A DNA stretch of 64,000 bases from NCBI GenBank assembly GCA_965287045.1, contig OZ336887.1, positions 44,888,001-44,952,000 of the forward strand, written 5' to 3'. Made by a program: the position numbers and the translations under genes. The notes below the pieces were generated by a model. That model did no database searches, was not told the DNA's origin, and worked only from the letters and a program-made list of their open reading frames with translations. Positions 8,596 to 64,000 of the stretch are shown here, one piece after another. Positions within the stretch are counted from its first letter, which is position 1. Each line of letters opens with the position of its first letter. The DNA is from Carcharhinus amblyrhynchos. Lineage: Eukaryota.

Positions 8596-56805
<48,210 letters not shown>

Positions 56806-59036
56806 TTAATACAACGAAACAATTTTAAGATCAACAACTTGCCTCATTTAATGGCATCTAAATCAGATTTGTGGCTTCTCAGAGCTAGCAGAATTCTAAG
56901 TCAATACTTTGACCATCTGACTGATGTAGTGCAAAAGTTACTTTCACCAGCAAGCCATCATAATTCCTGCATGTTGTGAAAATATCAGCATCCAATTTTT
57001 CAATTACAATTGGACATTTTCAAAATGTGAATTTCAGCTTTTCTTATAGACTCCCGTACACCTACACTTGTGTTTTTTGGGAGGCAAGGTGAGGCAGCTT
57101 GTCTCCCAATTTCAAGCATCAGTCTCTACTCAACGTTCCACCTCCACAAGCAATGAATTCACTTGATATCAAAATGTGCAAAAATGCATAGGAAGTTCAC
57201 GAGAACTATACAATAATAATGATCGATTAGGAATAAAGACACTCCTTTCCAACTTTATCATTCATACTAAGAAAAATGCCATCCAAAAGAGGAGCTTGAA
57301 GTAAATAGTGGATACATTGTTGTGGCATTTGCTCTCCACTATTACTTACCGTAGCTACTGCCTTCCTCGTTCTCAAAGATTCCTTGCACAAACAATTTGG
57401 GAATGGGCAAAATAGAACTGAGATACTGTTCCTCCAGAAAACATCTCACCCTGAGACATTAAATGGTCTTTTCCCATGACGCTGCACGCAAGATACCATT
57501 ATTTGCTTGCAGGAGGCTGCTCCAAGTTGCCAACAGCAAGAATATGGAAACATTATCACAAAACATGGAAGGTCAGACATTTGGATCAGGCCTATCAGGA
57601 GTTCTGTAGGCAGAGGTCGAACCTCTTCAAAATTTAAGCCGATTTCCACTCTAGGTAATTAATATTTTCCTCGTGCTCTACCTCCACAAGTAAATAGTAA
57701 AGGACAACAGTATAAAACATCTTCTAGTGAAATATTGAGGAAGCAAACGACATTTCATGTATGGTATAGTGGCAAAAGATTCACATCCTCACTTCAACAA
57801 GTGATCCCTGGAAGTACAATGCAAGACAGCATCACACTAATGGATGCCTTTCATATAGGTCTTAATAAGGGGATGGGTGTTGCATGACTCAAGACAAGGT
57901 CCTGCAAACAGAAGATGTGAAAGGGGAAATAGAAAGCCATTCAAGGGTGTAATGGCTTCAAAAGAACAATATCCCAGATGTCCTTTTCACCACAATGACA
58001 ACATTTCATGGAAGTTACAGAAATAAACTTTAAAACATTCTTCAGACACAAACACAGTTTTTTTGGTAACAGACAGAATTCAAGGAACCCAGATTTATCA
58101 CGTACAAGAACAATACCAAAGAATAAAATAAATCAAATCAGTGATCAAGGAATGAGAAGTTTAGATTACACAAGTCTGCAGATTTAGGAGTAAGGAAAGA
58201 GAAATGAGTTAAGGAGATAAGGATTATACAAATGAGTAACAGTGCTTCGGCACCTATGATTCACGGTTAGCCAAGATGACTTGAAAATTCCCAACATTTT
58301 CAATCCCCTGAGGGCCTATCCCTCTCGTCTTGAATCTCATTCAGCCCCACAACCCTCCCAGATATTCTCACTCATCCAATTGTGAAGTTGAGCATGCCCA
58401 ATTTTACCTGTTCTACAATTGGTGGCAATGCTTTTGGCTGCTTAAGCCCAAGATTAGAAATCTCTCTCTACCCCTCTATCTTTAAGGTATTTCTTAAGAC
58501 TCGCCTGTTTGACCAAAGTTTTAGTTATCTGCCTTAACTGTATGGTTCAATATAGCATTTTATTATTACTGTGAAGAATCTTAGGTGTTAAAGACACTAC
58601 ACAAACACACGTCGTTTCATTCTCAGCACGGTGAAGATTCAATGTAAGCAAGTAGTAAGGAATAGGAGCTGGAGATGGCCATTCAAGGCAATGGCTGATT
58701 TGTTACTTCAGCTCCACCTTCCTGAATTATCCCCATATTCCATTAGTGTCTATAAATATGTCAGCTTCTGTCTGGAATATACTCAATAGCTGAGCACACA
58801 TCTTGGGGCGGGCAGGGGGCGTAAGTATTAATGATTCATTATCTTCAGAGTGTAATCTCTCTCATTTTAGAGATAAATGGATGTCCCCTTATTGTGAGGC
58901 AATGAACCAGTGCTCTAGACAGACTCGGTCATCTCGCATTTTTCTAAACTCGAGGGATTGTAAGCTTACTTTATTCGATCTCTCCTTAGCCTATCTCGTG
59001 AATCTTTATTGCACTTCCTCAAGGTGAAATGCATTT

Positions 59037-59523
59037 AAAACTTTTCATCTTGCACTCATCAGGAGGGATGCAAGAATACCAAACATCAAAGGGAACAACT
59101 GATGAGCAAAGGGGTGCCAATTGGCTGGCAATTTGGCTCTGAATGGTCAAGAGTTACCATGGCGAATACACCATTAGATGTGATTGGGCAGCATTTGCTG
59201 AACAATCCCAAATGGATTAACATTTAGAAAAACCAATTTAAGATAACAGTCAGGTTTACAATGTCACTTTTGCTCATCTTCTGCAGGCAAAAGGAACATA
59301 TCCAGACATGGAAGTTTTTAGAATAAACAAATGAAACGGAAAATAGCTTCCTGTGTATGTCACCATGGTAAAGTAATGACCAGCTGGTTGGTTGACTTGC
59401 CAACCAGTCAACATGCCTTTTCTCATGCATTGTTGTTTCCTTTCAAATTTGGTACATTTCCATCTGTCCTGATGAGTGAAAAATGAAAAGCTTCAACACT
59501 GTCTCTTTTCTCAGCAATACTTA
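59037..59523. mobile_element. Penelope-derived element with inverted terminal repeats and a GIY-YIG remnant
   Basis: cttttcatcttgcactcatcagg..aaagggaacaac / gttgtttccttt..cctgatgagtgaaaaatgaaaag; internal plus 'IGQHLLNNP..NQFKI'. Confidence 0.75.
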
Positions 59524-60710
59524 ATGTATTTATTACCAAGCAACTGTAGGACAAGTATGCTGTTTCTTCAGATGAGAAGAAAACTCACCACAGTAACTTC
59601 AGGTGTTTAACCTCAATACTCTAGTTGCGGTTAAAAACAAACATTGTTAATACTCCAATTCAAAACAAATGGTAACATATCATCTGCCTTCCTGATTGCT
59701 CACTGTAATTTCACGTACAAGGACATCAGGTCCCTCTGAATATAAATTTTCCCAATCTTTTGCCATGCACAAAATTATTGCCCAATTTTATTCCCCGAAC
59801 AGAATAACTTCACACATTGCCATTTTTATTTCAATTGACACGATATTGACTAATCACTCAGCCTGTCTATACCCCCCTGCATATTTTTCTTGTGCCTTGC
59901 CCAAGAGCAAAGGTTCATAATTTGAGAACATTAGAGTTTCAGTTTAAAAGAAAGTCAACTGTTAGTGAGGGAAAAGTAACTTGTTACAAAAGCAGATAAA
60001 CATTTGTGGTAGTTTTAGCAATTAATTACATTAGGTGAGATGTATCAAGAATGTGAATAGATGAAAGGACTATAGAACTGAAAGGACTAAATAACTTGAA
60101 AGTTATGAATGTGATTTAAGAAGTTGCAACAAGATTTTCACTGTTCAAAGGACAATCAAAGCAGCCATCCATGCAAGTGGGAATACAAACAGCAAACACA
60201 ACAACCATAAAATCATGCAACACATTAACCAGAAAAATATGATGAGTAATCGCAATAGTCCATCCCCATTTGCAACAGCAATGATGCATTTTGACTTATT
60301 AGCTGTATTCTAGTTAGAGCTATTAATGTGAATAGTACATGGAATTGCACTGCTGTCAAATTCATTTCATAAATTGGGGGACTACAGGATAACATACACC
60401 TGGTTATGAATGCAGGATCCAATTAAAAGGCAGGCAAGATCTAAAAAAAATTCAAGAAATAACATGATTGGGACTTTCTTGCCTCCGAGGCAAATTTACA
60501 CATGAAACACCACTGCTTTTCAAAACTAGGTCAAATCCCCTACTGACCATCTAATACCTACTATTCATCCTTGTCCACAGTAAATGATAACAATTCTATG
60601 ACTATATGCATTCTTCAAAGAAAATCTACTCTTCAAATAAAATCAGCATTAAAATCATTCTATTTGTTATCAGCTACAACCTAATCATTTACAAAAGGGA
60701 ATATTACTCA

Positions 60711-60932
60711 CTGTCATAACTCACCATTTCTCCACAGAGAGTCTTCCACAGACACAAGCGTTAATCTGCACCAATCCAGCTAACTGGAATATTGAAGATT
60801 GCATGCACCACTTGCTGGTAGTTCTAAGAACAGCCGAGCTAAAACAAAATAGTTAAGAGAACAGAAGAGGACGGTGGGTGGTTTATGTCTGTGTGGAAGA
60901 TTCTCCTTTAGAGAAGTGGGAGTTATTACTGC
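60711..60932. repeat. Imperfect ~50-bp inverted repeat (arms 60711-60759 and 60881-60932)
   Basis: ctgtcataactcaccatttctccacagagagtcttccacagacacaagc vs reverse complement gcagtaataactcccacttctctaaaggagaatcttccacacagacataaac. Confidence 0.85.
60725..60838 (-). other. USP7: Candidate stop-containing (poison) cassette exon in USP7 intron 2
   Basis: Pyrimidine tract + CTTAAC branch-like motif + ttttgttttag| acceptor; ATG|gtgagt donor; 114 nt, phase 1/1 like intron 2; in-frame TAG at 60780-60782. Confidence 0.5.
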
Positions 60933-62199
60933 AATGCTTTTTTTTAAAATCAGATCTTTCACAGACAGACATTTTCATAATGGTACCACTTAGAGCGCTA
61001 ACGATAGATACGCATGTCAACATTATCTTCCTCAAAGAGACCCAATGGCAAAGTAAAAATGCACAAGAAAAAAATTATAGCAATTTGCAAACATTTATTT
61101 CTAATATTTACTTACCAGCCACAGTTTGTGTAAACAAAGTGCATGCTGCCAAAGCTCTTATTTTGCCCAATATCTTTGTTTTTTTTAATTGACAAATCAC
61201 AAATTGCTTCAAAATATTTTCTCACGTAGTCTCAAAATACCAATCAAACCAACTGGAGTAAAATAATTTTTTTTAATCACACTTTCAATAACCTATTTAA
61301 AGCACTCAGTTGCCATCCCTCTTCTGTACATTCTGGCCTCATGAAAAGTGGGGTATGGGAGACGAAAATGTTACTGCAGAGTCCAATTTCTTGGCGACAT
61401 CCCTACGCGACCCCACAATATACTGAAATGCGCGGTCTTCATCAAGTCACTGGCTAAGACCAGAAGGGACTCAACAGCTTCTTCCTGCCACTACAGAGTT
61501 ATTTGGATCAATGAAAACTCATGCTCAAAGCGCAGAGTTTATCTCATACAACAGAATGTCTAGACCCAGGAGATATCATGGTAATTGACTTCCATCAACT
61601 GTAGAGCACAGATGCTACTCAACTTAGTTTTACTAACAAATGTTCTTCTCCCAGGTACTATAGCGCCTAACGTTGCCTTCCCATGTTTATGTTGTGCCTC
61701 TGCACCTTTGATGCTGGGCAAATCCAAGAGGTCCACACATCAGGATTTTGAACCACTTGAACATGCAAGGCTATGACAATTCAGCACCTGTCCTGTGGGT
61801 CAAGTCTGCCACAACTGACATTAAGGAGTGAAGGGAAATAGGAATAGTAGGGAACACAACCGTCAACATGTTTGATAGTTTTTAACTTTTTGTTCCTCAT
61901 GGCAGTGATACAAAAGAAATGGGTTTACTATCAAACAAACCTGTTGGACTCTAACCTAGCGTTGAGAGACTTCTTACTGTGTTTACCCCAGTCCAACACC
62001 AGCATCTCCACATTAGGATAACAAAGCCAGCCAATCTGACAGGGTACACTATTTCTTTTTAACACTTCCACCTTCATCTGGAACGAGAACACACTTGTTC
62101 TGTAATTCAGCTCAAAACCAGGCATCACTGTGGTTAATCGGCACCACTAATGATACCACAAAGTGTCATTAGCTTTTAAAGGAGATAGCTCTGGTGAAA

Positions 62200-62470
62200 C
62201 ATTCACATTATAAAAGGGTGGTGAGGAATCCCTTCTCTCAGAGGGCTGTTTGTCTTTGGAATTCTCTTCCACAGAGCTATGGAGGCTGGGTCATTGAACA
62301 TATTCTAAGTGGAGATAGAGTTATCAGCTAAGGAGTCAGGGGTTACATAGGTGGGCAGTCAGGAAATGGATTTGAGGTCACAATCAGATCAGCTATAACC
62401 TTACTGAATGACAGAGAAGGCTCGGCAGACTGAACGACCTACCCTGCTCCTATTTATGATCTTATGACTT
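62200..62470 (+). mobile_element. CR1 LINE 3' fragment
   Basis: ttctctcagagggctgtt..tggaattctcttccacag (FSQRAV..WNSLPQ) and CR1 3'UTR. Confidence 0.8.
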
Positions 62471-62629
62471 ACGGGAAGCTAACGCAACCAGATGTCACAC
62501 GGAATCCTGTAAACCAGGAAGTATTACAGAGATCTTAGAAATTTTCAGAGACGAACCCTTGGTCCAATATTTTGCTTTCACATTTGAGAAAAGGAAATTA
62601 CACAATTATTCTAATATACTCATCCACTA

Positions 62630-62920
62630 AGAATTCAACAGCACCTTCCAAATCTGTGACCTCCCCACCCCACCCAGAAGGGCAAGAACAGCAGAGATAT
62701 GGGCAATTTCTCCTCCAAATCTCACACTACCTTGACTTGAAACTGTAACACTGTTCCTTCACTGTCACTGGGTCAAAATCCTGAAATAACCTTTCTAATA
62801 GCACTGCGATAGTACCTGCACACATGCACTGCAGCAGTTCAAGCAACTCATCACCTTCTCAAGGGCAATTACAGATTGGCAATAACTCAATCCATGAGCA
62901 AAGAAAGAACGAAGCATTCT
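62630..62920 (+). mobile_element. CR1/L2-group LINE 3' fragment
   Basis: cagcaccttccaaa..ctgggtcaaaatcctg..caccttctcaagggcaatta. Confidence 0.75.
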
Positions 62921-62999
62921 ATGCTCCATGAGCAACAACACCTGAAGACACAATAAAATGCAAACAGAATACAATGGCCAAATATTAACATACTGGGGG

Positions 63000-63043
63000 T
63001 TGCCACTGACCAGAAACCCAGTCAGATTTCTGGTCAGTGGCAA
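63000..63043. repeat. Perfect 17-bp inverted repeat with 10-nt loop
   Basis: ttgccactgaccagaaa-cccagtcaga-tttctggtcagtggcaa. Confidence 0.9.
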
Positions 63044-63944
63044 ATGCAGTATCACCAGGACAGATGCAATATTATTAGGGCAGGTTAAACATCGGGTGGT
63101 TCAATGGCAATCACCTCCACATCCTGACTCCCCCAAAACCTCTCCATAACCTGAAAATCAAACATCAGAAATCCAACTGAATTCTGGTCACATGCTTGGG
63201 TGGGTTCAGTTACAAAAACTGTTGAGTCAATTTTACAGCACAAAAAGTCATTTGGTCCTGCGCCAGCCATCAAGCATGTATCTATCTATACTAATCCTTT
63301 CACTCCCTCCACACGTGCAAGCTATCCACAGGATCGACTGCAGCAACTTGCCAAAGCTTTTTTAGTCCCAAACCTCTGATCTCCACCAAGAAGGTAGCCA
63401 AGGACAGTGGGTGATCAGAACACCAAAACATTCAAGACACATGCCATCACTCCACCACTGATTGGTCAACTCCTGCTGACCACCACTTTGGAAACACCAT
63501 CACCTGAACAGCAACAGACAAAGGCAGTTCACTACTACATTCATAAGTGTCACTAGAGATGGGTAATAAATGTGAGCAACACCAGGAATTGAAGTATCAA
63601 ACCACAGCTACCACATCCGGCTTGTTGATTAACATCAAAAGACATACAACTTCCCAGATGTTGGTCAAAGACATCAATGACATTGCTGGTTAATTGGAGG
63701 CAGCACTGGGCAATTATCCAGATGATAAAACAGAAATTCAGCGTTTTATCCTTGATCATCAGCACCAAACACAATTTGGCCACTGCACCTCTTCACTAAT
63801 TCACTTCCTGTCTGGTTGCAGTTAGCAAAACTGGAACTCTGGGTTTCTCTTTACCAGAGGAACCAAGCTTTAGAATGCAATAAATGACTATTCCACTGAG
63901 TGCTTTCACAGATGTGTGTTTCTTTTTGTGTTTCTCTTTTGTTG

Positions 63945-64000
63945 GGGAGCACAGCAGCAGAGTGGTTAAGCACTGCTGCCTCACGACGCCAAGGACCTAG
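63945..64000 (+). mobile_element. V-SINE head (truncated by window edge)
   Basis: cagagtggttaagcactgctgcctcacgacgccaaggacc. Confidence 0.75.

Follow-up and report, generated by a model that had tools for sequence, protein, structure and literature searches.

In Carcharhinus amblyrhynchos, USP7 occupies the - strand of the window (the whole stretch of DNA analysed, 64,000 nt), and the ray USP7 protein maps onto the gene in 29 blocks. The start of exon 1 is at 88062, and exon 2 falls just beyond the window (window-equivalent 66273-66169); exon 3, the downstream constitutive exon where the TRAF/MATH domain starts, is at 56783-56585 and encodes 65 residues near-identical to human USP7 structures. 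Thus the candidate exon described here sits in USP7 intron 2, which is 9.4 kb long. This USP7 begins MNHCTKP..., an N-terminus that, among the vertebrate USP7 proteins compared, is similar to the one of Mobula. For scoring of splice sites, matrices were derived from the gene itself, based on 22 donors and 23 acceptors of USP7 (23 of the 28 junctions were resolved, and one doubtful donor was dropped).

A 36-nt exon-like segment (12317-12282, - strand; AG ... GTAAGC), situated between the final two large exons of USP7, matches an insert in Mobula isoform P0051, and the other vertebrate proteins compared are without the insert; judging from these matches, cartilaginous fishes probably use the segment as an alternative exon. 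Moreover, ray, frog and salmon USP7 (P0051, P0020 and P0067) carry differing short inserts at the same catalytic-domain junction, after GDGK/GEGK; the ray insert found no match in USP7 intron 39665-36692 (best score 16).

The candidate cassette exon (60725..60838, - strand; 114 nt, phase 1 at both ends) was delimited by its sites, translation and matrix scores. Upstream of it are a branch-point-like CTTAAC (60852..60858, with CTTAAC at 60857-60852) and a pyrimidine tract with the acceptor AG (60839..60851, AG at 60840-60839; 8.0 bits), while its 3' end carries the main donor ATG GTGAGT (60719..60727, after 60725; 7.4 bits) and, further on, a second donor ACA GTGAGT (60706..60714, after 60712; 4.8 bits). 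These signals are ordinary for the gene: 16 of the 23 true USP7 acceptors score lower than the candidate acceptor, and 12 of the 22 true donors lower than the main donor. UGCAUG, the RBFOX motif, occurs once in the exon (60802..60807) and twice downstream (60170..60219; 60219-60214 and 60175-60170). USP7 introns hold 43 UGCAUG in 63.6 kb (0.68 per kb), so three within 640 nt are a mild excess, noticed after the fact. A sequence-only reading of this DNA had placed the CTTAAC, the AG, the exon start, both donors and the three UGCAUG, and every one of these positions was confirmed on the - strand.

If the exon were included, the frame would read A-RLFLELPASGACNLQYSS-stop: the in-frame TAG (60780..60782, - strand) is codon 76 of the included form and stands 55 nt before the donor, translation ends after 75 codons, and downstream of the premature stop lies the rest of USP7, i.e., 28 further aligned blocks with exon junctions. 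Translation thus bears out the claim of the same reading that a 114-nt exon with phase-1 junctions and an early TAG lies in intron 2.

In 63,572 intronic nt scanned (intron 1 covered in part only), 36 of 3948 GT and 52 of 4149 AG were as strong as the candidate sites, and there were four distinct places, candidate included, where both sites of this strength stand 30-250 nt apart. The other three (11111-10907, 34414-34220 and 51441-51270, - strand) score at least as high as the candidate for acceptor and donor.

The exon is embedded in a predicted stem, the 5' arm of which (60883..60937, - strand) lies in the intron upstream of the branch site, while the 3' arm (60706..60757, - strand) comprises the last 33 nt of the exon and 19 nt of intron. 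Folding yields 44-46 pairs with bulges (60937-60883 with 60757-60706). The sense-strand fold reached -75.6 kcal/mol (z -4.45), and none of 200 shuffles was as good; the duplex of the two arms reached -53.2 kcal/mol, compared with a shuffled mean of -21.2 +/- 4.2 (best of 1000 shuffles: -36.5) and with -35.0 and -36.6 for the best other partners of the arms sampled in intron 2. The stem was absent from all 14 pairs listed by an ungapped inverted-repeat finder, which missed it because the stem is bulged; the ~50-bp inverted repeat noted earlier exists, in an imperfect form. The opposite strand folds equally well (-80.6 kcal/mol), as that of any DNA inverted repeat would, and thus folding alone is no proof that RNA is the working form.

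The predicted fold buries the 5' splice site and leaves the acceptor in the loop, as had been proposed from the letters. Seven of the nine nucleotides of the main donor are paired, and the predicted cost of opening it is 13.1 kcal/mol at 37 C (18.8 at 15 C); the 22 true USP7 donors have a median opening cost of 3.65, and only one of them exceeds 13.1. A U1 duplex at this donor is worth -9.2 kcal/mol, less than what opening costs. On the other hand, the branch site, located in the loop, and the tract are predicted to open for 1.5 and 4.0 kcal/mol respectively. By the prediction, the inner stem has fully formed (-66.5 kcal/mol) once transcription reaches 60730, with the donor still to come. When the four A residues opposite the donor were forced open, as a crude proxy, the donor cost was halved, from 13.1 to 6.5 kcal/mol, and so came to less than the U1 duplex returns. 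A further acceptor-like AG (before 60905; 7.7 bits) is concealed in the 5' arm; it is lost in organism H, one of the divergent organisms compared below.

Several other structural roles were considered. A search of 56000-64000 against Rfam at E up to 5 gave three sub-threshold matches, none overlapping the element. An H/ACA snoRNA came into question because an ACA stands 3 nt before the end of the organism A match; it was rejected, since the two hairpins of that class are lacking and organism C has changes in both the ACA and the H-box-like AGAUUA. Competing pairing between the element and six flanking conserved patches was unconvincing (best z -2.57, the other five -0.8 to 1.6).

The element is single-copy at the sensitivity of our search. 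One candidate each in the 2.9 Gb genome was found for 60600-61050 (E up to 0.001), for the 5' arm (E up to 10) and for the flanks 60000-60700 and 61000-61700, by a copy search that skips common words and that very old copies would escape. Control hairpins in other USP7 introns, which are stronger than the element, had 2016 and 860 genome candidates. Thus the statement of the sequence-only reading that no TE was recognised agrees, at that sensitivity, with one candidate each for element and both flanks, and the multicopy MITE with TIRs, which it had named as the finding that would speak against its proposal, was not encountered. The single copy rules out a recent MITE and is compatible with a very old one.

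Folding better for its composition than the element was observed in four of 1152 windows of 232 nt, at three loci (the others being taken on a 60-nt grid, the candidate window being placed on the hairpin); two of these loci were searched, and both are repeats (2016 and 860 candidates). The strong hairpins at 29410-29700 and 48430-48720, in other USP7 introns, are built from multi-copy repeats. Two more windows with better-than-composition folding are L003 ~1950-2180 (window-equivalent 65949-66180) and L003 8670-8900, one of which follows directly after the exon 2 donor.

Words of 60650-61000 were present in 22 runs from 11 organisms, and four of the 22 runs were aligned: three divergent putative RNA runs (organisms A, C and H) and one close DNA-like run. 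No run registered as RNA contained the stretch, which is neutral as to use of the exon. Of the differences in the run alignments, 40 of 112 substitutions and 12 of 31 indels are listed, those near the ends partly; the gaps of the three element-covering contigs (A, C and H) are all accounted for. In organism A, a 3954-nt contig matches at 96% over exactly 60709-60930 (8 substitutions and one gap), and in 1.7 kb outside the element only two patches align (38 and 48 nt). Organism C has 7 listed substitutions in the 213 nt inside the element vs 6 in the next 69 nt, and organism H has 14 in 232 nt inside vs 11 in the next 69 nt. Loop and arms are conserved about equally. In one or two of the divergent organisms, patches at 61300-61355, 60206-60243, 60265-60316, 60358-60432 and 60065-60155 also align; A and C share the alignment of 61306-61335, at a similar spacing, and 60206-60243, near the downstream UGCAUG motifs, aligns in organism A with 6 differences.

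The exon signals were retained to different degrees. The acceptor AG has no listed change in any of the three divergent organisms, the branch-like site became CTCTAAC via a 1-nt deletion in A and H, and the in-frame stop is kept in all three (TAA in A, unchanged in C and H), with no indel between acceptor and stop. The main donor is retained in two of the three: in A, 7 of the 8 substitutions could be placed and none falls in the donor; in H no change is listed there, differences near the alignment ends being incompletely listed; the C alignment stops at 60725, beyond which comes homologous intron lacking the GT of this donor, and a shifted GT there reaches -4.1 bits. Therefore the conservation expected by the sequence-only reading was found for the island, whose borders coincide with the stem ends, and for acceptor, branch-like site and stop, but was broken for the main donor in C. 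Among its minor features, A (-1.4 bits) and C have lost the second donor, and H, alone of the three, has a changed exonic UGCAUG. A coding role for the exon was rejected, as the stop is retained and four of the six listed changes 5' of it alter the residue.

At paired positions of the outer stem, five of the seven listed changes keep the pair (60937, 60931, 60906, 60902 and 60888), and two break it (60889 and 60749), where by eye organism H can re-pair in a shifted register; the altered 3' arm of organism C, again by eye, still pairs with the 5' arm. The small helices inside the loop are broken by most listed changes and are unconserved. The compensatory stem changes that had been anticipated did not appear: among the listed differences in A, C and H none is two-sided. 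The changes lean to sense-strand G.U (5 vs 2, not significant), and five of seven for one-sided transitions is about what chance would give. Thus, as far as the listed changes tell, the outer stem is tolerated in every organism compared, with no sign of covariation.

Given the splice sites, stop, complementarity, single copy and conservation observed for the USP7 intron 2 element, we tentatively read this single-copy conserved island as a candidate poison exon masked by structure, a reading to which we grant a little under an even chance. Its operation would be as follows: i) the inner stem is predicted to form before the donor emerges and then to zip over the donor; ii) by default the exon would remain undefined and be skipped, giving full-length USP7; iii) a helicase, an editing enzyme or a binding protein might loosen the stem, upon which the exon would be included; iv) inclusion would place a stop after 75 codons, and by established NMD rules the message would be removed. 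Default skipping is likely.

The splicing/NMD rheostat envisaged by the sequence-only reading is thus backed by the single copy, the island, the stop and the masked donor, but not by two-sided covariation, and its donor is broken in organism C. Donor loss in C, loss of the second donor in A and C, and the lack of compensatory change are, in the sequences compared, counter-evidence to a poison exon. With the GT missing and the 3' arm, by eye, still able to pair, selection in organism C seems directed at the stem and not at the donor. As to prior expectation, of the intronic nucleotides conserved in human, known cassette exons account for only some 0.1-0.2% (PMC11632617). At the transcript level, no splicing at 60838 or 60725 was found in the contigs of the three putative RNA runs, all contigs being unspliced through the element; since contigs drop rare forms and show presence rather than absence, and since the RNA label of the three runs is a guess, this is weak counter-evidence.

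The open sites of decoy exons engage the spliceosome and detain the intron. The element may likewise serve through its acceptor: with the donor locked, the open branch site and acceptor would engage the spliceosome, so that intron 2 would be slowed or detained, or a terminal exon begun, and no cassette would be included. Retention of the acceptor in all three divergent organisms vs two for the main donor agrees with such a role, as does the unspliced course of every contig across the element (one of them of 3954 nt), although DNA or nascent RNA would yield unspliced contigs as well. Frequent retention around conserved cryptic exons, described in PMC11632617, also points this way. However, stop and frame are kept in all three organisms and would be superfluous for a pure decoy, and we consider this role unlikely.

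Equally unlikely in our judgment is a function at the DNA level (such as an enhancer) derived from an ancient hairpin-ended transposon, with the stem as a TIR relic and the splice signals due to chance. Conservation that stops at the repeat ends, as in an exapted element, the like folding of both strands, the lack of two-sided covariation among the listed changes and the three other equally strong pseudo-exons in USP7 would all be accounted for. On the other hand, no second copy was found in 2.9 Gb (E up to 10 for the 5' arm and 0.001 for the whole, with very old copies escaping), the stem changes favour sense-strand G.U (though 5 vs 2 is not significant), and a strong acceptor, a strong donor and a donor placed in the stem are jointly unlikely, albeit judged after the fact.

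ADAR prefers A.C mismatches, and the long bulged duplex of 44-46 bp contains two of these in 1x1 form (A60901 with C60741, and A60727 with C60916, - strand), which are putative editing sites. The stem may therefore be chiefly a site-selective ADAR substrate, with editing as the conserved event, with or without an effect on splicing; at 60902, the A of the window is shared by the DNA-like run, and each of the three putative RNA runs has G. Yet a change from A to U at 60816, which cannot be editing, is common to the same three runs, so that the shared differences, 60902 included, are explained by descent. Moreover, the mismatched A at 60901 and at 60727 are listed as G in no run, and the searched supplementary files of a mouse editing map contain no Usp7 entry (PMC6724681). 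We regard this explanation as improbable.

Very improbable is a short-protein switch. In it, the second donor would join the ATG of the exon (60727; G at both -3 and +4) to exon 3 without a frame shift, as computed, to give a predicted USP7 minus its first 57 residues with the whole TRAF domain remaining. It would require re-initiation after a 75-codon upstream frame, as well as a second donor that scores a low 4.8 bits and is missing from A (where the place scores -1.4 bits) and from C; via the main donor, the ATG is out of frame (25 codons). This exonic ATG with the second donor is the sole in-frame restart found, and the restart at a Met in exon 3 suggested earlier gained no support.

To return to the structure-masked poison exon, the host gene itself offers a conceivable regulator. 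In human cells, USP7 stabilises ADAR1 (PMC13376933) and the RNA helicases DDX24 and DHX40 (PMC6203733), which makes a feedback route from protein stability to splicing conceivable. The stem might then act as a sensor of USP7's own activity: at high USP7, ADAR1, DDX24 or DHX40 would edit or unwind the stem, the donor would be exposed, and the poison exon would lead to mRNA loss. We hold this extension to be improbable; if true, control of protein stability would feed back negatively on splicing, through an ancient loop, in a gene whose product does not bind RNA. More generally, a conserved splicing brake on USP7, a hub deubiquitinase, would be a new control point, and a donor locked by the upstream intron with the acceptor in the loop would offer a compact test case for structure blocking exon definition. 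In Hao-Fountain syndrome the usual mechanism is USP7 loss of function (PMC10996728). Should the element extend to mammals, it would offer a place where deep-intronic disease variants might fall and an antisense target for up- or down-regulation of USP7.

No description of such a USP7 exon was found in the literature searched; GENCODE and VastDB lay outside that search, with which an annotated human counterpart would be compatible. USP7 was likewise not found in the searched supplementary files of PMC8052449, PMC7347940, PMC11632617 and PMC6724681. The element resembles the human conserved cryptic poison exons, which combine an intronic conserved element, exon signals and a stop and 25% of which have flanking complementary regions; USP7 has no hits in the table of these exons, which omits GENCODE/RefSeq-annotated ones (PMC11632617).

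It is also similar to pseudoexons of ATM and CFTR, in which a good donor is silenced in an RNA stem and exposure would cause inclusion; these are pathological and activated by mutation, whereas the USP7 element is a conserved island (PMC1935003). Such conservation suggests a selected role. Among the structured NMD motifs of plants (DEAD, 45ABC and BPM1&2), BPM1&2 lies in a ubiquitin-pathway-type MATH-domain gene. These motifs, like the candidate USP7 element, place a hairpin over alternative splice sites of a PTC cassette; alternative splicing has been shown or annotated for them, and the likeness to USP7 is one of description (PMC12218528).

Closest in kind are BRD2 exon 3b and BRD3 exon 5b, where a conserved intronic island holds a stop cassette and pairing represses inclusion, and where the hosts, like USP7, are not splicing factors (PMC10789245). 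For BRD2/BRD3, inclusion, NMD and compensatory rescue have been shown, whereas the USP7 exon is known from sequence and predicted fold. The architectures differ: in BRD2/BRD3 both arms lie in the flanking introns and the exon is looped out, whereas in USP7 one arm is the 3' end of the exon with its donor, and the loop, unlike that of BRD2/BRD3, contains the branch site and the acceptor (PMC10789245).
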